The position numbers and the translations under genes were made by a program. Shown one piece after another: positions 29,706-57,568 of a DNA stretch of 64,000 nucleotides; the stretch's first letter is position 1, and every line of letters begins with the position of its first letter. The stretch is taken from IMG/VR virus record IMGVR_UViG_3300045988_183421. One strand, 5' to 3'. Below the pieces are notes generated by a model that saw nothing but the letters and a program-made list of their open reading frames with translations, did not search any database and had not been told where the DNA came from. The DNA comes from a virus.

Positions 29706-29736
29706 GCCGAGCGGTGATAAGCCGCTCGGCTTTTTT
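29706..29736 (+). terminator. Rho-independent terminator.
   Basis: GCCGAGCGG-tgataa-GCCGCTCGGC followed by TTTTTT. Confidence 0.85.
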
Positions 29737-29737
29737 C

Positions 29738-29766
29738 TTTGCTATTTGCTGCAAAGTAGATACAAT
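29738..29766 (+). promoter_or_regulatory. Promoter family A, copy 2 (TTTGCT-atttgctgcaaagtaga-TACAAT).
   Basis: It shares the ATTTGCTGCAAAGTAGATA core with the other family-A copies. Confidence 0.5.
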
Positions 29767-29830
29767 AAAAGGAGAATTCGAAAGGAGGCGGCGTACAGGC
29801 AGACAAGCTGCTAAGACGCCCAAAAAAGCT

Positions 29831-30910
29831 ATGAAAAATGTAATGAGAGTGCTTGCTTTTGTAAGTGCGCTGCTTTGTGTAGGATGTATTTCTACACAAG
29901 CGTTGACTTCTCTTGGTGATATTGATATTGATATCACTCGTGAGTTCAATTACAAGGACCAAGAAGAAGCCGATGCCAATCCTCTTCCGAAGGAAATTGA
30001 GGAGAACGGTAATACCTATGTCCTCGACGAAGACAGCGTAGATTATCAGCAAAGGGAACTCAATACCAAGTATCAAGAAACCGTAGAATATACGGATTTG
30101 ACTGTAAAAGAAGTTCCTCAGACTTATACTGTAACGCTGGGCGGAGAACAGTATGAATTGCCGCTCGAAGATGTTCAGTACACGGAAGAGCAAGCCGATA
30201 TTCCCACAGAAATGACAGTAGAGTATAAAGGCGAAGACAAGAAACAGAACGCCCCGCAAAACAAGACCTTCACTCTTGATGATGGTACGGAAGTTGAAGG
30301 CGTTCTGAAAGAGGTCAATGAAGTCGAGGACACCGATACATGGGTCGATTTCACGATTGATGGACAAGTCGTAATTCCGGAAGGTGCCACCGCATATGTC
30401 TATCTCGGAAAAGTCCACACATACAATCCCGCCACACCGCTTTGGGATGGTTATAAGAGCGATTTGATGTCTGCCATCGGTCTGAACAGTGATTCCTATA
30501 AAATCACAGGCGGTAAGTGGACAAGCGACCCAGTAGCGAGGGCAGAAGGCGGATTCTACCGCACACTGTCTATCTACGGTCAAAAGAATACCGGCAAGAG
30601 TTATGTAGCTGTATATGAAACCGCTGCACCTATCGAAATCAAGTATGTAGCCAGCGCAACCTATTCCATGTCGCTGCTCAGCATCGGTCTTGATGAATCG
30701 TTCGGTAACGCTTCTGAACTTACGATTTGCGCGATTGCACACTATGTATTGGAGCAGGTAGCTAACGCCAATTTCATTGTAGGCGCTGTATATAGAAACA
30801 GACTCATCATGCCCATTATGGCAGTAATCTTCGGAATTTCCGCAGGCGCATGCGGTTTTGTCGGGTTCTCTAAGGATAGTCGCAAAGAAGAAGATAGCGA
30901 AGAAACTTAA
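29831..30910 (+). CDS. Secreted or surface protein with an N-terminal signal or lipoprotein-like peptide, a C-terminal transmembrane helix and a charged tail (KDSRKEEDSEET).
   Basis: N-terminus MKNVMRVLAFVSALLCVGC. C-terminus IMPIMAVIFGISAGACGFVGFS followed by a charged tail. No LPXTG or NxKTG motif. Confidence 0.6.
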   Translation: MKNVMRVLAFVSALLCVGCISTQALTSLGDIDIDITREFNYKDQEEADANPLPKEIEENGNTYVLDEDSVDYQQRELNTKYQETVEYTDLTVKEVPQTYTVTLGGEQYELPLEDVQYTEEQADIPTEMTVEYKGEDKKQNAPQNKTFTLDDGTEVEGVLKEVNEVEDTDTWVDFTIDGQVVIPEGATAYVYLGKVHTYNPATPLWDGYKSDLMSAIGLNSDSYKITGGKWTSDPVARAEGGFYRTLSIYGQKNTGKSYVAVYETAAPIEIKYVASATYSMSLLSIGLDESFGNASELTICAIAHYVLEQVANANFIVGAVYRNRLIMPIMAVIFGISAGACGFVGFSKDSRKEEDSEET

Positions 30911-31028: not shown

Positions 31029-31259
31029 ATGACATCGAACAGCAATACTGAAAGTGCGAGCGAACACGATATTTTTAGAACCTGTTATCAATGCCCACAT
31101 CGCAAAGCTGGATGTCATTCCGTATGCGAAGGCTATTCGGCTCGTGTTGCCAAACAGCAGGAGATATATAAAATGCGTTTGGCACAATGTGATGAATATG
31201 CATTCAAGAAAGAGGTCGCCAGCAAAGTGTCAAAGTATTGCAAATCCCATTGCAGATAA
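31029..31259 (+). CDS. Small Cys-rich protein of 76 aa, possibly metal-binding.
   Basis: RBS AGGGGGAG. Cys pairs in CYQCPHRKAGCHSVCEGY...CKSHC. Confidence 0.5.
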   Translation: MTSNSNTESASEHDIFRTCYQCPHRKAGCHSVCEGYSARVAKQQEIYKMRLAQCDEYAFKKEVASKVSKYCKSHCR

Positions 31260-31274
31260 GAAAAGGAGTATACC

Positions 31275-32809
31275 ATGTTTTTAGGAATCATCATTGTCGT
31301 ATTGTTTGTTTTGTTCGTATTCACATGCTACAAAAAAGCGCCTCCCACAGCAGCCATCGTTGTGACCGGATTCGGTTTAAAAAACCTAAGGTCGTTTGCG
31401 GAAAAGGTACATTCGTCATCCCCGTGCTGCAGCGTGCAGATAAGCTGAATATGCGTCTTCTGAAAATTGATGTCAAAACCCCTGAGACGGGTGTCAAGAC
31501 AAAAGAAGGCGTATCGCTCTGGATTGATTCTGTTGTAACGATTCAGGTATACAGCGATAATTCTACTGTTCTCGACTCTGAGGTTCAGGCATCTGGTGCA
31601 AAGGATGTCAAGGAATATATTACGGGTCGTCAGCAGTCGGCTATTTCGAACTTTCTTGGCATGGACGAAAAAGGCATCAATGACAAAGTAAATGATGTCT
31701 TGCAAGGCAACCTGCGCGAAATCGTTTCGGATATGACGGTTGACCAGATTCTCACAAATCGTAAACAAATGGCGCTGTCAGTAATCGAAAATGCCCGTCC
31801 TGACCTTGCAAAGATGGGCCTCGAAGTTGTAACCTTCAATGTGCAGGATGTAAAAGACGCCGTTGATGCGCAGGGTCACAATCACGGCGTCATTGAGGCT
31901 ATTGGTATTGAGCAGGAAGAAGCCGTTAAGAAACGTGCAGAGATTGCTCGTGCAGAAGCCGCTCGTGATATTGCTCGCGCAAAGGCTGACGCTGAAATGG
32001 CAGCCAATGAAAAGGAAGTTGAAGCCCAGACTGCTATTGCACAGCGCAACAATGAATTGCAGCTGGCAAAGGCCAAATTGAAGGCCGAGGCTGACAAGGC
32101 TGCTGCTGATGCCAACGCTGCAGGACAGATTCAGACAAATCTTCGCGCTAAGGAAATCAAGGAAGCCGAAGCTGATGCGGAAATTGCAAAGCAGAAGAAG
32201 ATGGTCGACCTTGCTGCACAGGAAGCCGAGGTTCAGCAGAGAAAACTGGATGCAGAGGTTCGCAAAGCTGCGGATGCCGAATTGTATAAACGCCAAAAAG
32301 AAGCAGAAGCAAAAAAATACGAAGCCGAACGCGCTGCTGAGGCTCAGAAATTTGCAAAGCAGCAGGAAGCCGAAGGTATTGCCCTTGTAGGTAAGGCAGA
32401 AGCTGAGGCTATCCGTCAGAAGGGTATTGCTGAAGCCGAAGCTATGAAGCAAAAGGCGGAAGCTTACAAGCAGTACAACGATGCTGCTGTTGCTGAAATG
32501 CTTATCAAGGTCCTGCCTGATATTGCTAAGAATGTGGCTCAGCCCTTGTCCGCAATCGATAAGGTATCTATCATCGGCGGCGATGCATCTGGCGTTTCCG
32601 GCGTGTCTGGGAATGTTCCCGTGCTGATGGCACAGACCATGCAGACCGTCAAGGAAGCTACCGGTATTGATATGGCCGATATCGTTCGTGCGAATAGTAT
32701 CAATGCTAAGACTGACCGCAATATCAACATTCACGGTTTGCCTGTAATCGAGAAGGCTGATGACAATGCACACATCGAACCTGACGAAAACGCAAGCGAT
32801 ATAAAATAA
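31275..32809 (+). pseudogene. Flotillin/SPFH (band-7, FloT/YqiK-like) gene interrupted by a frameshift in an A6 tract at 31379-31384.
   Basis: Frame 0 from ATG 31275 gives MFLGIIIVVLFVLFVFTCYKKAPPTAAIVVTGFGLKN and then a stop after 57 aa. Frame +2 continues as KKPKVVCGKGTFVIPVLQRADKL... through the SPFH domain and a long A/E/K coiled coil. One extra A would restore GLKKPKVVCGKG. Confidence 0.75.
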
Positions 32810-34477: not shown

Positions 34478-34996
34478 ATGAACAGCGTAGAAACGAAAAC
34501 AACGGATAAGACTTATGCAGTCAAGAATACTCACAAACAGGAATGGGAGACGCCTCAGGGGCTTTTCGATGACCTGAACAAGGAATACGGTTTCACTCTG
34601 GATGCGGCTGCATCGGACAAAAATCATAAATGCAAGAAATATTACACGGAGCGTGTCGATGGTCTCTTGCAGGACTGGAAAGGTGAAACAGTATTTTGCA
34701 ATCCCCCGACAGGGCACAAGTCCTTTAAGTTGTGGGTGCGCAAGGCGTACGAGGAGTCAAGGAAAAAGAATACCACGGTCGTCATGCTTTTACCCGTTTC
34801 TACGGACTCTGACTGGTTCCAGAGATACATCTATGGACAGCAGGGAGTAAGGGTAAAGTTTCTGCCTGCCAGAATCAAGATGACGAACCCTTATTTGTTC
34901 ATTGATTCTGAAAATCGGAAAGAGACTATCGGCAGTCGTCGTCCTTCTATGATTGTTGAATTCACAAACAAAAAGCGTAAGTTCTCGATTATTTAA
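34478..34996 (+). CDS. Phage-type orphan DNA N6-adenine methyltransferase (Dam family) with a non-canonical NPPT catalytic motif.
   Basis: Translation 'WETPQGLFDDLNKEYGFTLDAAASDKNHKCKKYYTERVDGLLQDWKGETVFCNPPTG'. It has motif I and an (N)PP(T) motif where (N/D)PPY is expected. Confidence 0.7.
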   Translation: MNSVETKTTDKTYAVKNTHKQEWETPQGLFDDLNKEYGFTLDAAASDKNHKCKKYYTERVDGLLQDWKGETVFCNPPTGHKSFKLWVRKAYEESRKKNTTVVMLLPVSTDSDWFQRYIYGQQGVRVKFLPARIKMTNPYLFIDSENRKETIGSRRPSMIVEFTNKKRKFSII

Positions 34997-38670: not shown

Positions 38671-38760
38671 TTGCTGGACAACTGCATGTGTGGTATCATG
38701 ATAACAACAGGTAGTTGTATATTAGTTGTTCTTTCCGTTTTAACAACTGCTATGCATCAG
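38671..38760 (+). promoter_or_regulatory. Divergent control region. It contains promoter family B copy 5 (TTGCTG..TGTGGTATCAT) and iteron-like ACAACT/AGTTGT repeats, which could be a parC-like centromere or an XRE operator.
   Basis: ggACAACTGCATG, aACAACaggtAGTTGTatattAGTTGTt and aACAACTGCtATGCAT lie between the XRE gene and parM. Confidence 0.45.
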
Positions 38761-38864
38761 TCAGTGAGTCCCATTGTTATCTGGTAGACACTTATATTTT
38801 ATCACGCAGAGTATCCCAAAATTCGTACTTTCAACTATATTGCGACTCGTTCGGAGGATTTTTT

Positions 38865-39824
38865 ATGGAGATTATTGGAGTAGATACCGGAAACAAGGCA
38901 ATGAAGACGCCTGGCTGTGAGCCGTTTCCCACTGGTCTTGTTCGTCATGGTACGACTGAACCGGCTATCAAGGGAGAGACGATGTGCTACATGGGGAAGT
39001 ATTATTCCCTCAATGACAGCCGTACGCCTTATCAGCAGGATAAGACGAAGGATGACACTTACTTTTTGCTGACGCTGATTGCCGTAGCAAAGAACCTTAT
39101 AAAGAAGTATCCCAATCAGAAATTCTACAAATACGATGTATGCCTCGCGATGGGCTTGCCCCCGCAGCATATGTCCCTGAAAGCGAAGTATGATGAGTAT
39201 TTCGGCAAAAGCGGGAAACTCATCAATTTCATGTACAAAGATATCCCGTTTGAGATTACTGTCAAGCATGTCTTTGTCTATCCTCAGGGCTTTTCTATTA
39301 CGGCAGCAAGCGAGATTCAGAAGGAAATCAAGCGCTATCCCCGTTCTTATGTCGTAGACATCGGCGGGTATACCACGGATGTGATTCGTTTCTCTGGTCG
39401 TGGCAACACTTATGCTCCGGACCTTTCTTTCTGCGAAAGCTATGACCGTGGAGTCATTGAACTCCTGAGCACTGTCGAGAGCGAGCTGCGTGTCCATTGT
39501 TCCTTGTCGGTCGATGACTACATGGCTGAGGCAATCCTTGCAGGGAACAACAACATGCTGGTCGATGAAAACGCCGTGAAAATTGCCAAGGAAACCGCAG
39601 ACAATTATGCAACAGCATTGATTCGTACGATTTCCGAAAAAATCAAGGACGACTTCAAAACATCCTATTTCATCTTTATGGGCGGTGGTTCTGCTATGAT
39701 GCGCGAAAGCATCGAGCGAGCCATTGACACCAAGAACCTTTTCTTCTTGACGGATGTAACCGCAAATGCAAAAGGATATGAAATCATGGCTCGTGCAAAG
39801 CTGACCATGAGCGGTGAAATTTAA
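38865..39824 (+). CDS. parM: ParM/StbA-family actin-like plasmid segregation ATPase.
   Basis: RBS GGAGG. 'MEIIGVDTGNKAMK', 'VVDIGGYTTDV' and 'FMGGGSAMM' match the actin-fold phosphate and adenosine motifs. Confidence 0.7.
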   Translation: MEIIGVDTGNKAMKTPGCEPFPTGLVRHGTTEPAIKGETMCYMGKYYSLNDSRTPYQQDKTKDDTYFLLTLIAVAKNLIKKYPNQKFYKYDVCLAMGLPPQHMSLKAKYDEYFGKSGKLINFMYKDIPFEITVKHVFVYPQGFSITAASEIQKEIKRYPRSYVVDIGGYTTDVIRFSGRGNTYAPDLSFCESYDRGVIELLSTVESELRVHCSLSVDDYMAEAILAGNNNMLVDENAVKIAKETADNYATALIRTISEKIKDDFKTSYFIFMGGGSAMMRESIERAIDTKNLFFLTDVTANAKGYEIMARAKLTMSGEI

Positions 39825-46934: not shown

Positions 46935-47057
46935 CATTCTCCCCACGGCTAAAGCAGGGGGATTCCTGCATCAACCACCACTGCACAGCAACCGAGGTTG
47001 TTGCGTCTTACACGATGTCAGACAGGCGTTACTTCCCGTGTGTCCCACGGTACGGTA

Positions 47058-47296
47058 TGTATTAGTTTAAGCGGATTTTTCAAGTCCTTTACGCAAAATG
47101 TTAATGGCAGCGTTCTTGTCACGGTCATGAACCGTGTGACAAGACGGACATTCCCATTGACGGATGCTGAGGTTCTTAACAGCCACATTCTTATAACCGC
47201 AGCAACTGCATGTTTGGCTGCTTGGATAGAATGTATTGTCCACGCTATCGGAGAAAACTATTTCTTGTGGCTGGGTTTGAGGCTCGATTCAAGGAG
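47058..47296 (-). pseudogene. tnpB: C-terminal fragment of an IS605-family TnpB (zinc finger plus RuvC-III).
   Basis: Reverse-complement translation '..[54 protein letters not shown]'. Confidence 0.75.
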
Positions 47297-47574
47297 CTTG
47301 TGGCCCAAATCTGTGAGCAAAACGACATCGTGATATTGGCAATGGAATGTCATGTTGACCATTGTCATCTTTTCGTGAATGCTCCGCCTACATTAAGTGC
47401 TGCGGAAATCATGAAAATTTTAAAGGAACCACCGGAAGAATACTCAAGCAAGAGTTTTTCCCTGACACGGTTATGCAAATGTGGACTCGCAGCTACTTTG
47501 TAAGTACCGCTGGCGATGTGTCCAATGATACAATTCAACGCTATGTTGAAGAACAAAAAACGAGAGGAGGGTAA
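47210..47574 (+). pseudogene. tnpA: IS200-family TnpA (HUH Y1 transposase) with a frameshift at a TTTTAAAGG site (47419-47425). The N-terminal ~25 aa are missing.
   Basis: Frame a gives '[63 protein letters not shown]'. Frame b gives 'GTTGRILKQEFFPDTVMQMWTRSYFVSTAGDVSNDTIQRYVEEQ'. Confidence 0.75.
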
Positions 47575-47576
47575 TC

Positions 47577-49313
47577 ATGGCATTCGGGAGCAAAAACAGC
47601 ACACCGTCATTTGTGTTGACACTGCCGATGGTTATAGGTCTTAATGAACAAGACTATCTGAATAAAGAATTCAAGAAATGCGGCATTATCTATAATCAAC
47701 TTGTAAATGCGACCACAAAGATGTGGCATCAATTGCGTAAGACACGCAAGTATCGTGAACTAATGGCAGCTATTGCTAAAGCTGCTCCCGATAGCGATGA
47801 GCAGAAGGCACTTTTTAAGCAACGCGAGAAAATGCTTAAAGAGTACCGCTTCTCTGAGGATGCCTTTCATGCGATGGTCGTGCCCTATGCAAAGCACTAT
47901 GCTATCAATTCTCATGTAGCGCAGTCGATTGCTACTGCGGTTTGGACTGCGTGGTCATCTTTCTTTTTTGATAAAGGAAAGGAAGTCCACTACAAGAAAC
48001 TGGAATATGTTTCTTCAATATCAGGAAAAAATAATGCTACCGGAATAATGCTTCGTCCAGCAAATCACACCACAAGTGTTATCAATTCTGCCAAGACAAA
48101 AGCTAAAAACTCTATTGAGAAAAAATACTTTGCTGCGTACAGAAAACCAGACGCCAAAGAAGGCGAAGAAGTTGTTCTTCCCGACGAAGTAAAAGCACAA
48201 ATGGAAAAAGAGATTGCTGCTGCTACAGCAAAAGTCAAAACTTCCATTGGCAAAGGCAAGTTGCACATCACTTATGGGGATTATACATTCCCAGTGACAT
48301 TGCGAAATCCCGACACTCAAACGGGATGGTATCAACAGGAAGCGCTCAAATGCGGCGTTAAATACTGCCGTATAATTCGCAAATGGGTCAGCACCAAATG
48401 GAAGTATTATGCCCAAATTGTCCTTGAAGGCTATCCTCCCATTAAGTGTGACAACAACGGCGTTGCAAAACATCCTGTCAAACAGGGTCGTGTCGGTATA
48501 GATATCGGTACTCAAACTATTGCCTTTAGCGGTAAGGATGTTTGTGACCTTCGCGTGCTTGCTCCGGCTGCAAGAGCGCAGGCGAAAAGCCTTGTGAACG
48601 AAATCGCTTCTACGCTTCGTGCAATGGACCGTTCGCGCCGCGCTACGAATCCGAAATATTATAATCCGGATGGCACAATCAAAAGGTTAAAGCGGCAGCA
48701 TGGGCAAAAACAAAAGCGCAAGTGGAAATACAGCAAACGGTATTATCGCCTGCGTGCAAAACTGCGTAACCTGTACCGTAAATTAGCTGATATCCGCAAA
48801 ATGGAGCATAACATTCTCGCAAACGAATTGCTTACCCATGGCAATGAGTTCGTCGTTGAAGATATGAACTATAAAGCCCTGCAGAAGCGTAGTATAGAAA
48901 CAAAAATCAATTCAAAAACCGGCAGAGCACATACTAAAAAACGGTTTGGTAAATCGTTAAGTCGTTGTGCGCCTGCAATGTTTATCTCCATTCTGGGGAA
49001 AAAGGCAAACCGTTACGGAGGCAGTGTTATTAAGGTCAGCACCTTTGAAACAAAAGCCTCGCAATTTGACCATACAGACGAAAGTTATACCAAAAAGAAA
49101 CTATCTGAACGAATGGCTCGCCTCCGCAGCGGCGATATAGTTCAGCGCGACTTATATTCCGCCTTCCTGCTTGAACATATAGATACCGAATCTTTGCAGT
49201 ACAATATGGAAACCCTTAATTCAGCTTTTCCTGCATTTTTAGAAATGCACGAAAATACAAAGCGGCGCTTGCAGGCGGTTGGAAGCTCTCTTCCTGCAAG
49301 CATTGGATTCTAA
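47577..49313 (+). CDS. Large (578 aa) TnpB-like protein. It has a TnpB-type N-terminal WED region with insertions, and RuvC-I/II/III motifs, but lacks the zinc-finger cysteines.
   Basis: RBS GAGGAGG. Motifs 'GRVGIDIGTQTIAF', 'EFVVEDMNYKALQ' and 'IVQRDLYSAFLLEH'. The region where TnpB carries SQTCSxCG...CxxCG reads 'SQFDHTDESY...RLRSGD'. Confidence 0.7.
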   Translation: MAFGSKNSTPSFVLTLPMVIGLNEQDYLNKEFKKCGIIYNQLVNATTKMWHQLRKTRKYRELMAAIAKAAPDSDEQKALFKQREKMLKEYRFSEDAFHAMVVPYAKHYAINSHVAQSIATAVWTAWSSFFFDKGKEVHYKKLEYVSSISGKNNATGIMLRPANHTTSVINSAKTKAKNSIEKKYFAAYRKPDAKEGEEVVLPDEVKAQMEKEIAAATAKVKTSIGKGKLHITYGDYTFPVTLRNPDTQTGWYQQEALKCGVKYCRIIRKWVSTKWKYYAQIVLEGYPPIKCDNNGVAKHPVKQGRVGIDIGTQTIAFSGKDVCDLRVLAPAARAQAKSLVNEIASTLRAMDRSRRATNPKYYNPDGTIKRLKRQHGQKQKRKWKYSKRYYRLRAKLRNLYRKLADIRKMEHNILANELLTHGNEFVVEDMNYKALQKRSIETKINSKTGRAHTKKRFGKSLSRCAPAMFISILGKKANRYGGSVIKVSTFETKASQFDHTDESYTKKKLSERMARLRSGDIVQRDLYSAFLLEHIDTESLQYNMETLNSAFPAFLEMHENTKRRLQAVGSSLPASIGF

Positions 49314-49566
49314 ACAATAACTTTCTGGGGACTCGACACTTCCTCATTAAAGAGCTGCCTCGCAAGAGGTGAAACTCCCTTCGGAGGATGCACTTAAAAG
49401 AACTGGGAATGCAGACAAGTATGTTGGTCAACCTTTTAGGCTGGATGCTCGTTATACGCTACACCCGTAGCGTATGGTGGGAAACCGCATAACTCGCTGT
49501 TTCAGACACGGTTTGGCGATGAACCTTGCCGCGCCGCTCAGGAATCCCACGATTTCAATCGTGGGA
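49314..49566 (+). ncRNA. Highly structured non-coding region immediately 3' of the tnpB-like gene. It could be an omega-RNA (reRNA) scaffold or the IS right end.
   Basis: Hairpins CCTC-GCAA-GAGG, CTCC-CTTC-GGAG, GCTAC-accc-GTAGC and CCCACGA-tttcaa-TCGTGGG within 250 nt. No ORF. Confidence 0.4.
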
Positions 49567-50151
49567 GGTGTCAATATCGGAATAGAATTCTTTGAGTCCA
49601 ACATCAACGCCTACTACACAACCGTTGTTTGGTATAGGCTGAGGGTCATATTCCACATTAAGAACTACGAAATATTTACCGGTGGCTGTGCGTGCTACTG
49701 TTGCGTTGTGAATTGCGCCAATCTCCATAGACTGATGAACTTTTACCCAACCGATTTTCGGTAAGTGAATGCGCTTATTAGAAATGCGTATACCGTTATC
49801 AATATTGAGTGTGCGGTATGATTGTTTGGCGCTTTTTTTGCTTTTGAATTTTGGATGTGCAGCTCTATGCTCGAAAAAGTTTGTGTATCCGGCATCAAGG
49901 TTTCGCAGCGCTTGCTGCAAAGCAATGGAATCCACCTCTTTGAGAAACGCGTAGTTCACATCCTGCTTGAGCGCTGTCAGCATAGCAGAAGTTTGCTTGT
50001 AGCCGCACTTTTCCCCACCTTTGAAAGCGTCCTCCCGCATGGCAAGACCTTTATTGTAAATGAGTCTGCTGCAACCGAGAGTGCGGTCAATCAGATTGCG
50101 CTGCTCCCGGTTTGGGTAGATTCTAAATTTTACACCCTTTTGAAATGTCAT
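49555..50151 (-). pseudogene. tnpB: N-terminal fragment of an IS605-family TnpB (198 aa through RuvC-I). It is truncated at its 3' end.
   Basis: 'MTFQKGVKFRIYPNREQRNLIDRTLGCSRLIYNKGL...PKFKSKKSAKQSYRT...VVGVDVGLKEFYSD'. Confidence 0.8.
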
Positions 50152-50326
50152 CCCATTTTATCCTTTTGCCGTTGAGAAATTTTTTGATTTATTATATCAC
50201 AGCTCGCCATTCAATACTTGTGCAATTTGTAAACATTACAACTTAAGTTTCACTGCGCCTTATATTCCCATAGCTAAAACAAGGGGTTTTACGGCGCAAT
50301 CTGATAAGACACTTCTGATATTTTAC

Positions 50327-50355
50327 ATGCCCTGCTTTGGCAGGGCATTTTTTTA
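50327..50355 (+). terminator. Hairpin with a T-run (ATGCCCTGC-tttg-GCAGGGCAT TTTTTTT). It could be a terminator, an insulator or the IS left-end structure.
   Basis: 9-bp perfect stem followed by a T-run. Confidence 0.55.
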
Positions 50356-50368
50356 TTCGCAATTTGTA

Positions 50369-50397
50369 TTGACCACATTATATTTATGTGGTATAAT
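50369..50397 (+). promoter_or_regulatory. Promoter family B, copy 7 (TTGACC..TTATGTGGTATAATATAAAT).
   Basis: Consensus hexamers. Confidence 0.65.
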
Positions 50398-50444
50398 ATA
50401 AATATTCCAAGCGAAACATTGCTTTTTAGTCAAAGGAGAAATTT

Positions 50445-51004: not shown

Positions 51005-51694
51005 ATGAAAGATGCAGCAAAGAAATTCCGCAAGACCTGTGAGAAGTGCAACAAGCCGTTCAGCACCGCCAATGAGAGCGAGGTGCTGTGCCGCGAGTGT
51101 CGTATGCGTGACGATTTCGCAAAGCGCCGCGCAGAGGATGAAGCTCGCAAGGAAGCTGATGCAAAGAGCAATGAGGTGTTTGAGACCCGCAAGTGCGTTG
51201 ACTGCGGTCATGAATTCGACATCACCAATCGTGACCGCGATTTCTTCGAGAGCCACGGTTATTCTCTGCCGAACCGCTGCCCGGAATGCCGCAAGATTCA
51301 TCGCGACTTCGTGAAGCGCGGACTGGATAACATCGGTCTGGAAGACACTTGCGCAGATTGCGGTCAGAAGCTGCAGTTTACCAATCGCGAGCTGTACTGG
51401 TATGTTGTCCACGACTACAAGCTCCCCACCCGCTGCAAGGCTTGCCGTGAAAAGCGCAATGAGCACTTCGCAAAAATCGCAGCAAAGAAAGTGACTGCTG
51501 AGGGAGTCAAGGATGCGGTTATTGAAGCGCCCATCAATGAGTCGGTTGCAGAAGATGCCAATGTCCCCGCAATCACCGGGGATATCACTTCTCCCGCAGA
51601 GACTGTCACGGAAACTCCGGTAGAGGCCGCTGCCGAGACGGTTGCCGAGGCCGTCTCCAATACGACTCCTGACGCCAACGGCGCATCCGCTTAA
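51005..51694 (+). CDS. Protein with three CxxC...CxxC zinc-ribbon modules and an acidic tail.
   Basis: CEKCN..CRECR, CVDCG..CPECR and CADCG..CKACR. Confidence 0.6.
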   Translation: MKDAAKKFRKTCEKCNKPFSTANESEVLCRECRMRDDFAKRRAEDEARKEADAKSNEVFETRKCVDCGHEFDITNRDRDFFESHGYSLPNRCPECRKIHRDFVKRGLDNIGLEDTCADCGQKLQFTNRELYWYVVHDYKLPTRCKACREKRNEHFAKIAAKKVTAEGVKDAVIEAPINESVAEDANVPAITGDITSPAETVTETPVEAAAETVAEAVSNTTPDANGASA

Positions 51695-51969
51695 TGTCGT
51701 CTTTGCACAGTTTCTGTATCGAGCTTCTAATCGTATACGGATTCTGTATTGCAACATGGGCTTTGTTTCGAACTTTGTTTGTGCTTAATCGCAACAAAAT
51801 CAAGAAAAACCATGTTGACGGGGATTGCGACAGTAACAAAAAAGATGCTGCCGCAACAAATGTATTCGACGAAGGTATCGACAAACTCGATTGGTTCATG
51901 TGGCTTGCAACGAAGTTGGCCGTTGTAGCCTTTCTGATGCGAATCATCGTTGCTTTCTTTGCTCGATAA
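51694..51969 (+). CDS. Possible small membrane protein of 91 aa. No clear RBS.
   Basis: Two hydrophobic segments. Its frame avoids the codons TTA, CTA and TCA, as the neighbouring host-like genes do. Confidence 0.3.
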   Translation: MSSLHSFCIELLIVYGFCIATWALFRTLFVLNRNKIKKNHVDGDCDSNKKDAAATNVFDEGIDKLDWFMWLATKLAVVAFLMRIIVAFFAR

Positions 51970-51993: not shown

Positions 51994-53334
51994 TTGGACA
52001 ACATTAAAAATCCGGCGAAAAAGCCGAAACTCAAAAAGTCTTATTCGAACAGCACCATCTTTCAGAAGCTGATGGTGGATGATGTTCGCAACAAGATTCT
52101 CTTCACCATCCTTTGTCTTCTGATTTATCGTCTGGGTTGCGGTATTACGATTCCGTTCGTAAACACCGCTGCGCTTCAGACTATGTTCGGAAGCACCTCT
52201 GTACTGGATTATTACAATCTGGTTTCCGGTGGCGCACTTTCTCAGTGTGCGGTATTTGCGATTGGCGTATCTGCATACATCAACGCAAGCATCATCATCC
52301 AGCTTTTGACTGTTGCGATTCCGAAACTGGAAGAAATCAGCAAGGACATCGGCGGGCAGAAGCAAATCAATAAAATCACGCAGTATGTTGGCTGTGGTTT
52401 GGCGGCTGTAACAGCTATCGGGTACTTCTTTATTATGAAGAACTACGGTGCGATGAAATACACTTCCGGCATTTCGCAGGTCGTGGAAGCCATTACTGTT
52501 ATTGCCATTCTGACTGCTGGTTCTCAAATCGTCATCTGGCTTGGATGGCTGATTGACGAAAAAGGTATTGGCAACGGTATTTCCCTTATCATCTTTACCG
52601 GTATCATTTCCAGATGGGATGCTGTCATCTCGTTGTTCCAGAACTCTATTGCAATGGGCAAAGAAAATGGATGGTGGTATTACCTGATGATTCCCGGCGT
52701 CATCCTCTTTGTTTTGGCGGCCACCTTCTATGTCGTTTTCGCAAGCGATGCAGAGCGCCGCGTTCCTGTTCAGTATGCCGGTAAAAATGTAGGGAACAAA
52801 GCATCCACTGGTCAGTCCAGTTATATCCCCATCAAACTGATTATGTCGGGTGTTATGCCTATTATTTTCTCGTCCACCATTTGCAGTATGCCGTCTCTCG
52901 TGACGATGTTCCTCGATTACAACAAGCACCCCAGCCTGTATATGGCGCTGGCATCTTGGAATTCGCGGAATTGGATTTATGATGTTGCGTATGTGGCCCT
53001 GATTTTCGCATTCAACTTATTCTACATCGACATCACATTCGACCCCATCGAAATGGCAAACAATCTGCGCAAGAACGGCGGCAGTATCCCCGGTATTCGA
53101 GCAGGCAAAGCTACCAGTGATTATCTGCGCAATGCTTGCCATTCTCTCGCCGGTTCGGGAGCATTTGTTCTTTCGGTTATTGCATGTGTGCCTATCTTGG
53201 CAACTGCGGTTACAGGTCTGAACATGCACTTTGGCGGTACCAGTCTGTTGATTGTCACAGGTGTTACGCTTGAAGTTATCGATTCTCTTAACAGCCATTT
53301 GGTGGTTCGCCATCACAAGGGTTTCTTGAATTGA
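51994..53334 (+). CDS. secY2: SecY-family preprotein translocase subunit. It is a paralogue: it is not in a ribosomal-protein/adk context, so I call it SecY2-like.
   Basis: TTG start with RBS AAGGAG. 'DVRNKILFTILCLLIYRLGCGITIPFVN', 'GGALSQCAVFAIGVSAYINASIIIQLL' and the 'GNGISLIIFTGI' signature. Confidence 0.85.
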   Translation: MDNIKNPAKKPKLKKSYSNSTIFQKLMVDDVRNKILFTILCLLIYRLGCGITIPFVNTAALQTMFGSTSVLDYYNLVSGGALSQCAVFAIGVSAYINASIIIQLLTVAIPKLEEISKDIGGQKQINKITQYVGCGLAAVTAIGYFFIMKNYGAMKYTSGISQVVEAITVIAILTAGSQIVIWLGWLIDEKGIGNGISLIIFTGIISRWDAVISLFQNSIAMGKENGWWYYLMIPGVILFVLAATFYVVFASDAERRVPVQYAGKNVGNKASTGQSSYIPIKLIMSGVMPIIFSSTICSMPSLVTMFLDYNKHPSLYMALASWNSRNWIYDVAYVALIFAFNLFYIDITFDPIEMANNLRKNGGSIPGIRAGKATSDYLRNACHSLAGSGAFVLSVIACVPILATAVTGLNMHFGGTSLLIVTGVTLEVIDSLNSHLVVRHHKGFLN

Positions 53335-53349
53335 CGGGAGGGCAACACA

Positions 53350-53604
53350 ATGGCAATTTATGAAATCATTCTGTGCATCTTGATTCTGTTTGTTTCTGTT
53401 CTGGTTTGTGCGGTTACGCTTTCCATGGATAAGGCCGACAAGAACAGTCTTAGTGTTATCACCGGAATCAGTGATACAATGCGCTCGAATGCTAAAGACA
53501 GCACGAAAACGTCCGCAAATAAACTGGTTGCTGTATGTACAGCTATTCTGCTTGTTATCGCAATCATCATGTTCGTAGTAACCGGAGTAGGAGGTGCGGC
53601 ATGA
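53350..53604 (+). CDS. SecG-like small membrane protein of 84 aa.
   Basis: Two transmembrane helices flank an S/G/T-rich loop (LSMDKADKNSLSVITGISDTM), similar to SecG 'LLQSSKSAGLSGAISGG'. Confidence 0.4.
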   Translation: MAIYEIILCILILFVSVLVCAVTLSMDKADKNSLSVITGISDTMRSNAKDSTKTSANKLVAVCTAILLVIAIIMFVVTGVGGAA

Positions 53605-53852
53605 AAGATAAACTGAAAAAGGTAGGAACGGCTATTGCGAATTTCGTGAAGGCAATTCCTTCTTTCGTCAAGAGCACGCCTAAGAAGCTTCACAATTTGG
53701 TTGCACCCAAAAATGTGACTTGGCCGAGTATGCACAACACGCTCCATCGAACCGGAGCAGTTCTTGTTGTGAGTGCTGTATCCGCCGTTATTATTGGCAT
53801 TATGGATGCGGCATACGCTCTGTTGCTTCACGTTCCGTTCCTGTTCGTTTAA
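53601..53852 (+). CDS. SecE-like protein.
   Basis: 'KNVTWPSMHNTLHRTGAVLVVSAVSAVIIGIMDAAYALLL' matches the SecE 'KVSWPKGKELTRYTITVI..FALLD' pattern. Confidence 0.5.
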   Translation: MKDKLKKVGTAIANFVKAIPSFVKSTPKKLHNLVAPKNVTWPSMHNTLHRTGAVLVVSAVSAVIIGIMDAAYALLLHVPFLFV

Positions 53853-53858
53853 AATACT

Positions 53859-53895
53859 GCCCCGGTAGGCAACCTGTCTGCCGGGGTCTTTTTTA
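53859..53895 (+). terminator. Weak terminator.
   Basis: CCCCGG..CCGGGG stem followed by TCTTTTTT. Confidence 0.4.
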
Positions 53896-53909
53896 TAAAG
53901 GAGTTTTTT

Positions 53910-55073
53910 ATGAAAAAAAATGCAAAAGAGATTTTGGCAGTCATCAGTGCCGCATGTATTGCATTGACCGCGTGTGGCAAAAACGTGACCGATGCAAGTA
54001 CATCTGAGACTGCGGAAACAGCTACCTCTGAAACGGCTTCCGCTGTTGAGTATGACCTCGGTCTTGATGATGACGGGTATTTTCGTGATGTGACCGCGTC
54101 CAAATACATAAAGATGCCCAAGAATTATAAGGAATATACGGTCAGCAAAGATGTATACGCTGTTACGGACGAGGAGATTCAAAGTGAGTTGGATTATTTT
54201 CAGTCCAATTACAAGCTGACAACAGAGGTAACAGACCGCGCCGCACAGAAAGGCGATGTTGTGAACATTGACTATGAGGGTACGGTTGATGGTGTTGCTT
54301 TTACCGGTGGAACAACAGAAGACTACGATTTGGAACTCGGTTCCAATACCTTTATTGACGGATTTGAAGAGCAAATCGTCGGGCATAACACGGGGGATTC
54401 GTTTGACGTCACAGTAACATTCCCTGATGGATATAGCAGTACAACAGATAGAACCACAGGCGAGCAGACTATCGAGCTCGCCAACAAGGAAGCTGTTTTC
54501 CATGTAACGCTTAATAAGATTTCTCAATATAGCATGACAGATGCTGATGTTGCCGGTATCATGAGTGGCTACAAGCTGCAAGACGGCACTGCTGTAACTA
54601 CAGTAGACCTGCTTCGTGAATATGTTGAAGAGAATCTTCGTATGAATAAGATTCAGAATGAGATTGAACAGTATTTCATTGACAATGTAAAACTCAAAAA
54701 GGATACGACAGACCTTGTCAACCTGAGTCTTGAAACCAACTTGAAGTATGTCGAAAACGAAGCAACTGCCTACAATATGGACTTGGAGACATTCGTTCAG
54801 ACATACAGCAATTATAAGACCTCGGAGGAGTATTCAGAAAGTCTTCGTGGTCAGACGGAAGAAAATGTTTTACTGAGCCTTGTTGCGCAGTATCTGGCAG
54901 AGGAACAGGACTATAAACCGTCTGTCGATGAAGTGAAAGCTTATATTGGCAGTAACTACGATAACGCCGTTGATACCTATGGAGCAGGTCCTTTGGCACA
55001 GGAGTGTATGTATAACAAGATTATGGGCAACTACTGCATTGATGTGTACGAGCGGTCTGCCGCAGCTGAGTAA
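53910..55073 (+). CDS. Lipoprotein homologous to trigger factor. It has the FKBP-type PPIase and C-terminal chaperone domains but no ribosome-binding N-domain.
   Basis: RBS AAAGGAG. Lipobox in ISAACIALTACGKN. 'AAQKGDVVNIDYEGTVDGVAFTGGTTEDYDLELGSNTFIDGFEEQIVGHNTGDSFDVTVTFPDGY' is collinear with the TF PPIase domain. Confidence 0.7.
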   Translation: MKKNAKEILAVISAACIALTACGKNVTDASTSETAETATSETASAVEYDLGLDDDGYFRDVTASKYIKMPKNYKEYTVSKDVYAVTDEEIQSELDYFQSNYKLTTEVTDRAAQKGDVVNIDYEGTVDGVAFTGGTTEDYDLELGSNTFIDGFEEQIVGHNTGDSFDVTVTFPDGYSSTTDRTTGEQTIELANKEAVFHVTLNKISQYSMTDADVAGIMSGYKLQDGTAVTTVDLLREYVEENLRMNKIQNEIEQYFIDNVKLKKDTTDLVNLSLETNLKYVENEATAYNMDLETFVQTYSNYKTSEEYSESLRGQTEENVLLSLVAQYLAEEQDYKPSVDEVKAYIGSNYDNAVDTYGAGPLAQECMYNKIMGNYCIDVYERSAAAE

Positions 55074-55084
55074 GGTGATGTATT

Positions 55085-56056
55085 ATGGCAAAAACACCTA
55101 TTATTCCACCACTGCCCAAAGAAGAACATTTCGAGCAGGAACTTGGTGCGTACAATTACATTCCAAATGATGAGGATGATGGAACTGGTGAAAACTTCCC
55201 TCATCAAAAGGCAAGTCATGACGAGGATGACAATGAATCGATGGATGCGATGGACGCGTCAGAGGGCAAAGAGAAACGGCGATTTTCCATCTGGACAGTT
55301 TTGTTGGTCGTAATCTGCATCGTTCTTATTGCCATGATTGGCTATATTGGATGGAAGGCGTATGATTACTATCATATTCCTGCATATGAAACAGGAGACA
55401 TCTCCGACGATGTAGAAGAACCCGTTTCTACCCCCTCGATTCTTATCCCGTCTTCTAATTCAAGTGAGAGTGATTCAGAACCGGAACCGACACCAAAGCC
55501 AGCGTATTCCAAGAACACCGTTGGTTACTTAACTGTTCCCGGCGTTGATGTTACAGATGAGCCCATTTTGCAGCATCCCACAGACGATGATTATTACCTG
55601 ACTCACAATGAGTTCGATAGGGAAAGTATCTGGGGCGCTTATTTTGTTCCCTCCGAATGGAATGTCAGCAATGTTGACGATATGTACAGAGTAACTGTTA
55701 TTTTTGGACATAGCAACGGAAACAGTATGCACAAGAAATTCAGTGTTTTGAAATACTTCCGCGATGTCAACTTTGCAAAAGAACATCGGTATATTTATCT
55801 TACTTTGGGTGAACAACAGACACGATGGAAAATCTTTGCCGTTGCCGATTATCCTATTGACCCAAGTTATACCATTGCGAATCCGGATGATTCGTATTTT
55901 CTGACAGAGATTGCAAGTATGAAAGCTTACTCTTACAATCAGTACGCCACAGAAGTTGGATTGAATGATAAGGTTTTGATTTTGTCCACCTGTTCAGGCA
56001 GTGATAATTACGATACTCGTTTTATTGTATGTGCAAAACTTGACGAAGTCTTCTGA
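55085..56056 (+). CDS. srtB: Class B sortase (SrtB family) with an N-terminal membrane anchor.
   Basis: 'VTVIFGHSNGNSMHKKF' is the His motif. 'LILSTCSGSDNYDTRFIVCAKL' is the TLSTC..R active site. Transmembrane segment IWTVLLVVICIVLIAMIGYIGW. Confidence 0.85.
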   Translation: MAKTPIIPPLPKEEHFEQELGAYNYIPNDEDDGTGENFPHQKASHDEDDNESMDAMDASEGKEKRRFSIWTVLLVVICIVLIAMIGYIGWKAYDYYHIPAYETGDISDDVEEPVSTPSILIPSSNSSESDSEPEPTPKPAYSKNTVGYLTVPGVDVTDEPILQHPTDDDYYLTHNEFDRESIWGAYFVPSEWNVSNVDDMYRVTVIFGHSNGNSMHKKFSVLKYFRDVNFAKEHRYIYLTLGEQQTRWKIFAVADYPIDPSYTIANPDDSYFLTEIASMKAYSYNQYATEVGLNDKVLILSTCSGSDNYDTRFIVCAKLDEVF

Positions 56057-56092: not shown

Positions 56093-56146
56093 TGAGACAT
56101 AACATAAATCAAATGATTTAACTGTATTATTGCAATCGGCAACTGA

Positions 56147-56180
56147 GCCGCCAGTGGATTGTCCCATTGGCGGCTTTTTG
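56147..56180 (+). terminator. Leader terminator-like hairpin downstream of promoter A3.
   Basis: GCCGCCAGTGG-attgtc-CCATTGGCGGC followed by TTTTTG. Confidence 0.6.
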
Positions 56181-56235
56181 CTGTTTATATAGATGTCCGA
56201 ACATTAACCTAATTTAAAACATGGAGGTATTCGCT

Positions 56236-56550
56236 ATGTTAAGCTTCTTTGACGCTGTTGCATCTGTTGCTGCTTTGGTTTGGGCTCTCGCTGTGGGGGC
56301 TTGTATCTTCCTTGCCATCGATTGGGATGGTTTATTTGAGGCTAAATACATCAAAGTTTTTCTCGTTGTCGCCATCATTGCGCAAGCCACGCTGTTCATC
56401 ATCAAAAAAATTGGTGCTGTTCTGTATTGCGGTATGTTCGCCAGTCTTACAATTTCAGTTCTTGGAATGATTGAGAACTTGTATTTGTACGCATATTTGG
56501 CGATTATGATTGCAGCTATGTTTGGCATGACAAAGCGCTATCACAGATAA
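56236..56550 (+). CDS. Small polytopic membrane protein, first of a tandem pair.
   Basis: RBS GGAGG. Translation MLSFFDAVASVAALVWALAVGACIFLAIDWDGLFEAK... Confidence 0.65.
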   Translation: MLSFFDAVASVAALVWALAVGACIFLAIDWDGLFEAKYIKVFLVVAIIAQATLFIIKKIGAVLYCGMFASLTISVLGMIENLYLYAYLAIMIAAMFGMTKRYHR

Positions 56551-56605
56551 TGCGATTCGATGTCCATAAACCCGTAAACCATCAGTAATTTTGGAGGTAA
56601 CTGAT

Positions 56606-56923
56606 ATGAGTAACTTTTTTGACACAGCAACCCTTATTTTCGCTTTTGTTTGGGTCATCTGCATGGGAGCCAGCTTCATTGCTGTTCTTGACTGGGACGG
56701 AATCATTGAGGCCAAGCGTCTCAAGCTTCTTGTTCCTGCGGCAGTCGTTGCCCAGATGTTGATGTTTTTGGTCGATAAACTTGGTGCCGCTTTTTATTGT
56801 GGTGCTTTTTCGAGCTTTACCATCGTGATTCTGAACATGATTGAAAAGGGATACACTTACATCTACCTTGCATTGGCGCTTGCGGCTATGTTCGGTATGA
56901 TGCAACGCTATCACAGAGATTAA
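56606..56923 (+). CDS. Paralogue of the preceding membrane protein, forming a tandem duplicate.
   Basis: MSNFFDTATLIFAFVWVICMGASFIAVLDWDGIIEAK... About 45% identical and collinear with the first copy. Confidence 0.65.
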   Translation: MSNFFDTATLIFAFVWVICMGASFIAVLDWDGIIEAKRLKLLVPAAVVAQMLMFLVDKLGAAFYCGAFSSFTIVILNMIEKGYTYIYLALALAAMFGMMQRYHRD

Positions 56924-56968: not shown

Positions 56969-57568
56969 ATGGAAAAGATTCTCAATGTAAAAATTCACAA
57001 TCAGACCGAGGAAGTCGCCAGTAAGGCAAAGAACGAGGCTCGCAACACTGCCAAGAATCCCCACATGGCAATGTTCGTCTTGTTTGCCGTCCTGTTCAAC
57101 ATTCTGGCGTTCGTCGTTCCCGCCAACGCAAATGACCTGTGGGGTTCTCGCATGAGTGCCTATAAGGTCGGCTGCGGCATCGGGTGTGCTGTTTTGGCGT
57201 GGTGCCTGCTGCATCTGCGCGACATTATTCGTGAACCAAGTCTTATCGGGGCTTATCAGATGTCCTACGATAAGCAGCGCACATTTAAAAAGCGCGGCAT
57301 CATTGCAAGTATTGGTACTGTTCTGAATAGTGTTGTGTATGCGGCACTTACGGTAACGATTGCTTCGCTGCCAACGCTTGGCGCTCTCGCAGTCAGTTCT
57401 ATTTATTGCAAGAGTTTCGCAGGATTTGAGACGCTTGATGTTGGTATCATGATTAGCGGCATCATTCTTTATCTTGGCGCAATGCTTCTTAATCGTTTCG
57501 GCCGAACGATTGATGCTTTCGTTGAGAAGAAGAAGTCTCCGAAAATTCCTTCGGATAACAAAGAATAA
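56969..57568 (+). CDS. Membrane protein, hypothetical.
   Basis: RBS GAAAGGAAAGG. Four predicted transmembrane helices. Confidence 0.6.
   Translation: MEKILNVKIHNQTEEVASKAKNEARNTAKNPHMAMFVLFAVLFNILAFVVPANANDLWGSRMSAYKVGCGIGCAVLAWCLLHLRDIIREPSLIGAYQMSYDKQRTFKKRGIIASIGTVLNSVVYAALTVTIASLPTLGALAVSSIYCKSFAGFETLDVGIMISGIILYLGAMLLNRFGRTIDAFVEKKKSPKIPSDNKE

Follow-up and report, generated by a model that had tools for sequence, protein, structure and literature searches.

The window analysed in this study, a stretch of 64,000 nucleotides from the IMG/VR virus record IMGVR_UViG_3300045988_183421, appears to be part of a conjugative megaplasmid of the Hodor group G2. On its plus strand, between positions 51994 and 56056, lie five co-oriented open reading frames (ORFs) for a SecY paralogue, a divergent SecG, a SecE, a lipoprotein related to trigger factor (TF) and a class B-type sortase (SrtB). 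We consider it rather probable that this module serves two giant surface proteins encoded in the same window: plasmid SecYEG together with host SecA would pass them to a TF-like foldase on the outer face of the membrane, and SrtB-type anchoring would follow. An earlier reading of this DNA from its letters alone (the original prediction) had placed the five genes at these coordinates, in agreement with the ORF listing, and had called the arrangement undescribed. The latter claim does not hold. Hodor conjugative megaplasmids of the human gut (211-389 kb), which were first filed as huge phages, have been reported with the same module, giant proteins and proposed function (Yuan et al., bioRxiv 22 Feb 2026, PMC12934698). 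The arrangement is already described, and the earlier reading is largely that of the preprint. What remains beyond the main text of the preprint is a family of TF-like lipoproteins located outside the cytoplasm, the affinity of SecY and TF to Ruminococcaceae, and a wider set of elements carrying SecY-SecG-SecE.

In its section 6, the preprint presents a surface-associated gene module in the order hyp-SecY-SecG-SecE-trigger factor-class B sortase, together with giant proteins of 7,309-7,704 and approximately 2,642 amino acids (aa) which have signal peptides, sorting signals and MBG domains (PMC12934698). It proposes that the giants leave through the Sec pore of the plasmid, are chaperoned by trigger factor and become anchored by sortases, and gives guanine plus cytosine (GC) contents of 47.1% for group G1 and 44.6% for group G2 (PMC12934698). 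Its main text makes no mention of lipoprotein, lipobox, FKBP or SecA (PMC12934698). Local GC content is 43.7-44.3% in contigs of the window type and 48.9% in a clade of relatives with 90% identical SecY. Because of these values (43.7% and 48.9%), we read the window type as G2 and the 90% clade, hereafter the sister group, as G1.

The SecY gene (51994-53334, plus strand) begins with a TTG codon, as it does in the sister group and in a clade with 59% identical SecY, and encodes a protein of 446 aa. The protein matches Pfam SecY at E=1.1e-86, aligns over its full length, end to end, with solved SecY proteins (3DL8, E=3.9e-78) and passes the housekeeping equivalog model TIGR00967 with 329.6 bits (cut-off 253.6). 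Both SecY2 models fail, TIGR02920 with 145.5 bits (cut-off 249.6) and NF009082 with 144.9 bits (cut-off 353). The cytosolic-loop motif PGIRxG, which is a contact for SecA and the ribosome, is kept as PGIRAG. Together with the mobile-element context, the TIGR00967 score bears out the predicted full-length paralogue. An accessory SecA2/SecY2 system was rejected on the model scores and on missing partner genes, since no secA2, asp or gtf was seen among the approximately 37 window proteins scanned; the original prediction had likewise noted the absence of secA2 and asp. That the SecY/SecG/SecE set is an accessory one is supported by its context, which is that of a mobile element and not rplO-secY-adk.

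The second ORF (53350-53604, plus strand) encodes 84 aa with two transmembrane (TM) segments. SecG is its best secretion match in both Pfam and NCBIfam, with scores below the thresholds (17.9 versus 29.2 bits and 19.8 versus 30.85 bits, respectively). SecG is also the top Pfam family in all five syntenic orthologues, that is, this ORF and its positional counterparts in four diverged relatives (best E=7.7e-07), and the most distant relative (L023) keeps the Gly-rich SecG loop and has a precomputed SecG match. A search of PDB sequences with the SecG-like profile returned noise. Because the syntenic orthologues all have SecG as best family and L023 keeps the Gly-rich loop, we accept the 84-aa ORF as a probable divergent SecG; the predicted family stood, although the profile score of the window ORF itself is sub-threshold. 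The stop of secG and the start of secE share four nucleotides (ATGA, 53601-53604), which suggests that the two genes may be translationally coupled. SecE (53601-53852, plus strand, 83 aa) passes PF00584 with 33.4 bits (cut-off 22.7) and TIGR00964 with 30.9 bits (cut-off 27.55), which confirms the small SecE-like protein recognised earlier by its VTWPS motif. Among five orthologues VTW is invariant and VTWP is found in four.

The fourth gene (53910-55073, plus strand) encodes a TF-like lipoprotein of 387 aa, composed of a signal peptide, a linker of approximately 25 aa, an FKBP peptidyl-prolyl isomerase (PPIase) domain and the C-terminal chaperone domain of trigger factor. Its N-terminus, MKKNAKEILAVISAACIALTAC, is a signal peptide ending in an LTAC lipobox, which fits the pattern [LVI][ASTVI][GAS]C, and the lipobox Cys22 is invariant in an alignment of 22 homologues. 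FKBP_C is matched at E=9e-17, and Trigger_C with 21.8 bits, just under the cut-off of 22.7. The trigger factor model TIGR00115 (tig) is matched at E=4.6e-50 with 170.6 bits (cut-off 180.2), and is covered at positions 108-371 of 410 only; solved trigger factors are matched over residues 125-395. The restriction of the tig match to positions 108-371 means that the ribosome-binding domain is missing. An AlphaFold model has a mean confidence (pLDDT) of 85, with residues 1-45, the signal peptide and linker, disordered, and the top eight Foldseek matches of this model in the PDB are all trigger factors. The claim of a trigger factor homologue reduced to FKBP and chaperone domains behind a lipobox signal peptide is therefore upheld. 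Since the lipobox Cys is invariant and the N-domain is missing, the view holds that the protein sits extracytoplasmically as a predicted lipid-anchored protein on the outer face.

The nearest cellular homologues come from Faecalibacterium prausnitzii (380 aa, 39% identity over 81% of the query). They carry a lipobox, FKBP_C and Trigger_C, are devoid of Trigger_N and are named 'trigger factor' by NCBI. One example (P0204, CP186691.1; L026 6001-7143) lies among metabolic genes on a chromosome of 3.12 Mb. The lipoprotein design of trigger factor is not unique to the element. A related cluster has 2,497 member sequences. We know of no study of this extracytoplasmic TF-like family of Faecalibacterium.

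The last gene of the module (55085-56056, plus strand) is the sole sortase-like ORF within the window. Its product of 323 aa has an acidic N-terminal tail, one TM segment and a catalytic domain. It matches the SrtB model TIGR03064 at E=7e-22 with 77.9 bits, under the cut-off of 153.75, and has no Pfam Sortase match. The nine PDB sequence matches listed for it are all class B sortases or SrtB homologues (Clostridium perfringens, Clostridioides difficile, Listeria, Staphylococcus aureus). Aligned to 5B23, the catalytic residues are found as His (GHS), Cys (LSTC) and Arg (TRF), and the Cys falls on the position that is Ser in 5YFK, an otherwise near-identical sequence. The protein is a divergent class B sortase by sequence, with the predicted catalytic residues present; the class given to it originally finds backing in these residues and in the PDB matches, while the curated cut-off is missed. 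Between the sister groups the sortase is 67% identical.

Terminator-like hairpins follow secE (53859-53887, plus strand; a 13-bp stem with 8 GC pairs, then a T-run) and srtB (56145-56176, plus strand; a 13-bp stem with 8 GC pairs). Their strength and position agree with the report that SecY-SecG-SecE and TF-SrtB are two co-transcribed sets (PMC12934698).

The candidate substrates are encoded at the left of the window. The gene of giant surface protein 1 (1-19680, plus strand) is open at base 1 and cut by the window end; the full protein has approximately 7,323 aa, and in a related contig (L053) the gene begins 764 aa further left with the signal peptide ...TIAYA/AEP. The protein contains MBG_2, DUF11 and DUF7507 repeats, and its C-terminus runs from SNKKTG-IGF through a TM segment to HKRKK. 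Giant surface protein 2 (20108-28051, plus strand; approximately 2,647 aa counted from Met22 of the listed ORF) has the signal peptide MQKPRKRFLSAIVAVAMCLSQFAPVTAYA/VES, six matched MBG_2 stretches and a C-terminus of VNYKTG-VGF, a TM segment and KKKK. MBG (YGX) repeats occur in both, and neither has LPxTG. Among the window ORFs these two alone combine a T-G motif with a TM segment and a basic tail; a further genuine ORF (29714-30910) ends in such a TM segment and tail and has no T-G motif. In contig L053, the region before giant gene 1 (3272-7432) carries the gene of a 459-aa lipoprotein with Big_2 repeats and, beyond it in the upstream direction and in opposite orientation, that of a 602-aa protein without Pfam match.

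In sister-group contigs protein 1 keeps NKKTG and protein 2 has QAPTG-VGL (L031/L034 versus window 27900-28051). Because protein 2 of G1 ends in QAPTG, the core is not strictly the NxKTG that had been proposed: the conserved putative sorting core is x-x-[K/P]-T-G-[I/V]-G. The shared non-LPXTG character of both C-termini stands, and the expected co-occurrence in relatives is found as far as the two giants are conserved with the module in the sister group, but with QAPTG in protein 2. Such a change of motif in this protein might reflect a sortase of relaxed specificity or one that has co-evolved with its substrate.

Contrary to the original prediction, the giants are not next to the module in the window: from the ends of their genes (19680 and 28051) it is 24-32 kb downstream to secY, and the nearest gap measures 23.9 kb. 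In the sister group (L021 4519-10001), 5.6 kb separate the end of the giant-protein operon from secY. Five genes within this G1 gap match window genes scattered at 28.4, 33.1, 33.8, 41.1 and 46.3 kb, which means that G2 has gained inserted blocks. The inserted blocks of the window type carry a flotillin (31238-32809), Dam (34478-34996) and a ParM-like gene (38715-39824).

In the pathway that we favour, the giant precursors (approximately 7,300 and 2,650 aa) would be threaded through plasmid SecYEG channels with host SecA driving, a role assigned to host SecA because PGIRxG is kept as PGIRAG. On the outer membrane face, the tethered TF-like protein may hold and isomerise the emerging giants in the manner of PrsA, PpiD and the Streptomyces FKBP lipoprotein. 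The sortase would then cut N[K/Y]KTG or QAPTG between T and G and link the giants to the cell wall, where the surface fibres would probably serve cell-cell contact in conjugation or colonisation. Concerning the motor, the window showed neither a SecA nor a signal peptidase, an Lgt or an Lsp. IMG/VR was scanned for the SecA motif DEARTPL[IV]IS-G; 24 contigs came up, none of Hodor type, although the collection includes Hodor contigs 346 and 389 kb long. As an exact match to the motif was required, this negative carries little weight. The motor is probably the SecA of the host. With no SecA found, the module is not self-contained, contrary to the original supposition, and the host would have to supply the motor.

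Several observations weigh against this pathway. The SecG and SrtB matches are both under the curated cut-offs. In the window, 24-32 kb separate the genes of the proposed substrates from the Sec genes, and the sorting motif of protein 2 differs between the groups. That host SecA is required is argued from a motif scan of IMG/VR contigs with negative outcome and from the silence of the preprint's main text on SecA (PMC12934698). Finally, a class A sortase is encoded elsewhere on the plasmid (PMC12934698), so that SrtB is no more than a candidate partner of these substrates.

The main rival reading gives the translocon a general or host-range role: SecYEG, foldase and sortase would raise secretion capacity, or bring it to a common standard, for the whole plasmid secretome, including type IV secretion system parts and many membrane proteins and lipoproteins, which would let the plasmid function in different Bacillota hosts. 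SecY and SecE score as housekeeping-type proteins and not as a specialised SecY2, approximately 24 kb of unrelated genes separate the Sec from the giant genes in G2, the distant relative L015 keeps SecY-SecG-SecE without adjoining TF or SrtB, and the plasmid has other exported proteins such as the Big_2 lipoprotein. Against this, the Sec genes, TF, SrtB and both giants are among the few genes common to the two deeply diverged Hodor groups (PMC12934698), and G1 has Sec genes and giants as one cluster with the 5.6 kb gap. We regard such a general role as unlikely.

Less likely still is that the class B sortase has another substrate and that the class A sortase of the plasmid, which lies outside the window, anchors the giants. 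The preprint leaves anchoring by 'class A and/or B' open (PMC12934698), and the SrtB of C. difficile did not cleave an N-x-Q-T-G motif in vitro (PMC4155245). The giants are, however, devoid of LPxTG, no further window ORF offers a T-G motif with TM segment and basic tail, and SrtB, which shares a transcription unit with the foldase, accompanies the giants in both groups as a conserved gene (PMC12934698).

As to the carrier, IMG/VR lists relatives of the window among its viral contigs, with lengths up to 389 kb, and nearby genes encode a phage-type Dam, a dCMP deaminase, HNH and TnpB. This could point to a huge phage that remodels host secretion during infection. We hold this origin to be very improbable: ten neighbouring proteins gave no PHROGs match, a ParM-like partition gene is present, and Hodor elements carry Rep_3, ParA/B/M, VirB4/VirD4/VirB6 and a MOBH-like relaxase, with TerL found only in embedded prophages or chimeric assemblies (PMC12934698). 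Of this published replication, partition and conjugation set, only the ParM-like gene lies in the window. The window neighbours include the flotillin, the phage-type Dam, the ParM/Alp7A-like actin and TnpB remnants; many other ORFs are without family, and Pfam gave no match for most neighbouring proteins. A transfer RNA scan found none. The locus gave nothing by blastn against plasmid and phage collections, where all SecY copies retrieved by tblastn were of housekeeping type, were less than 46% identical and lay either in an rplO-secY-adk context or in mislabelled records. GTDB representative genomes, scanned by pattern, yielded no relative and hence no direct host assignment; the preprint names the hosts only as Bacillota (PMC12934698). 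In the human gut the element is very widespread: an assembly collection indexes the identical SecY protein in 2,294 blocks, and Hodor is reported from 9,349 samples (PMC12934698). The longest contigs with the identical SecY (207-333 kb) come from human-gut metagenomes and have the same gene order and no ribosomal-protein context.

SecY homologues at 90, 71, 59 and 55% identity all lie in element-type contexts. The 59% clade (L012) has the whole module of zf_Tbcl-type protein, SecY, SecG, SecE, TF and SrtB. In the 71% clade (L015 7001-8834), SecY-SecG-SecE stands without adjoining TF or SrtB, and the neighbours are dCMP deaminase, NT5C and RRXRR. The 55% clade (L023 1236-8296) has SecY-SecG-SecE with a different sortase (Pfam Sortase) and a bactofilin upstream. 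The L015 and L023 elements have a GC content of approximately 42%. These trios with varied neighbours suggest a wider family of elements that carry their own translocon.

Homologues that are 49-50% identical are housekeeping genes of rplO-secY-adk operons, in DNA of 57-58% GC, one of them from Gemmiger sp.; the nearest cellular SecYs are Ruminococcaceae housekeeping copies (approximately 49% identity). In a rough neighbour-joining tree with bootstrap, calculated from a trimmed alignment, the element SecYs from 56% (el63) to 100% identity, except el66b, form one clade with 99% support, which the SecYs at 51-54% (el52, el55/L023) join only at 67-69% support. The element clade lies beside the housekeeping SecY of Ruminococcaceae (Gemmiger, Subdoligranulum), with Vescimonas, Agathobacter and C. 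difficile further out. One SecY with 66% identity to that of the window (P0084) groups with the Vescimonas housekeeping SecY (88% bootstrap) and may be chimeric or a separate capture. Sequence comparison shows plasmid SecY, SecG and SecE to be putative derivatives of Oscillospirales (Ruminococcaceae-like) housekeeping genes. Between G2 and G1, the ratio of non-synonymous to synonymous substitutions (dN/dS) is 0.044 for SecY, 0.095 for SecG and 0.096 for SecE, with saturated dS (1.3-2.1); it was not computable for TF and SrtB due to dS saturation. Values of 0.04-0.10 mean that secY, secG and secE are under strong purifying selection. That the window SecY is simply the housekeeping copy of a cellular chromosome, as its passing of the housekeeping equivalog model might suggest, was rejected as practically without a chance and is refuted by gene context: it has no ribosomal-protein or adk neighbours and mostly genes without known family around it, GTDB representatives gave no relative in the pattern scan, and true housekeeping relatives are only 49-50% identical and sit in the rplO-adk operon.

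Directly 5' of secY, the window type, the sister group and the 59% clade encode a cytoplasmic CxxC zinc-ribbon protein (zf_Tbcl; window 51005-51694, plus strand; PF13451, E=2.7e-10) with several CxxC pairs and a dN/dS of 0.14. It is probably the 'hyp' of the published gene order. A 91-aa ORF between it and secY (51694-51969) was rejected as a module member, since it is missing from the 90% and 59% clades. Further upstream, window positions 47000-50400 are a polymorphic insertion site, which is empty in several otherwise identical contigs and holds a 367-aa TnpB in others. In the window it contains a 578-aa ORF (47577-49313) with a weak OrfB_IS605 match and, on the minus strand, the N-terminal part of a truncated TnpB (49555-50151; HTH_OrfB_IS605, E=1.8e-17). 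Downstream of srtB follow tandem paralogous ORFs with multiple TM segments (56221-56550 and 56591-56923, 109 and 110 aa) and a 199-aa membrane ORF (56969-57568). These three are without family match and are kept in window-type contigs, not in the sister group. In a syntenic contig of 208 kb (L003 15500-20100), the block 3' of srtB from DUF1281_C to an 83-aa gene is inverted.

Taken together, a more far-reaching reading can be drawn, which we put forward tentatively and consider somewhat doubtful as a whole. SecYEG would be specialised for precursors of 2,600-7,300 aa, the TF-like lipoprotein would dock outside as a dedicated holdase or foldase, a monoderm counterpart of PpiD, the SecY-SecG-SecE trio would be the hallmark of a wider, largely undescribed family of gut Oscillospirales elements beyond the two Hodor groups, and Ruminococcaceae (Faecalibacterium, Gemmiger) would be the natural hosts. 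A plasmid with its own SecYEG, an extracellular TF-type foldase, a sortase and surface proteins of 7,000 residues is a rare import of core secretion machinery by a mobile element. If the favoured mechanism is true, giant adhesins would reach the surface and be anchored there without use of the channel of the host, and the module would provide a handle on the hosts and the conjugation biology of these megaplasmids.

Among known systems, the Hodor module (PMC12934698) is alike in gene order, in sizes and signals of the giant proteins, gut origin, element size, G2 GC content, ParM, TnpB insertions, filing as huge phage and transcription units; nothing essential differs in this comparison, which was made with the description in the preprint. 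The accessory Sec system (SecA2/SecY2) of streptococci and staphylococci likewise has a second SecY by the genes for very large wall-anchored surface proteins. In contrast to it, the window is without SecA2, Asp1-3 and glycosyltransferase, the substrates are not serine-rich repeat proteins, and SecY scores as housekeeping-type and brings its own SecE and SecG. The SrtB enzymes of C. difficile and C. perfringens (PDB 4UX7, 5GYJ, 5B23) are among the best sequence matches in the structural database and share His, Cys and Arg. Their substrates have x-P-x-T-G-type motifs cut between T and G, whereas the candidate motifs of the window are N[K/Y]KTG and QAPTG; sequence similarity is low, and at its N-terminus the window enzyme is extended by a long acidic stretch on the cytoplasmic side. 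The TF-like lipoproteins of F. prausnitzii have the same architecture at approximately 380 aa, but are stand-alone chromosomal genes with no Sec or sortase genes adjoining. PrsA, a parvulin of Bacillota, and PpiD at E. coli SecYEG are outer-face PPIases and chaperones which act at the exit of the Sec channel. In Streptomyces lividans, an FKBP-like lipoprotein is an extracytoplasmic foldase (PMC6833217). By function, PrsA and the S. lividans lipoprotein would be the closest analogues of the TF-like lipoprotein; like them and PpiD, it is a predicted membrane-tethered outer-face PPIase and chaperone for Sec-exported proteins. It differs from these foldases in combining an FKBP domain with the C-domain arms of trigger factor, not parvulin with SurA-like domains, and in being plasmid-borne and co-transcribed with a sortase.

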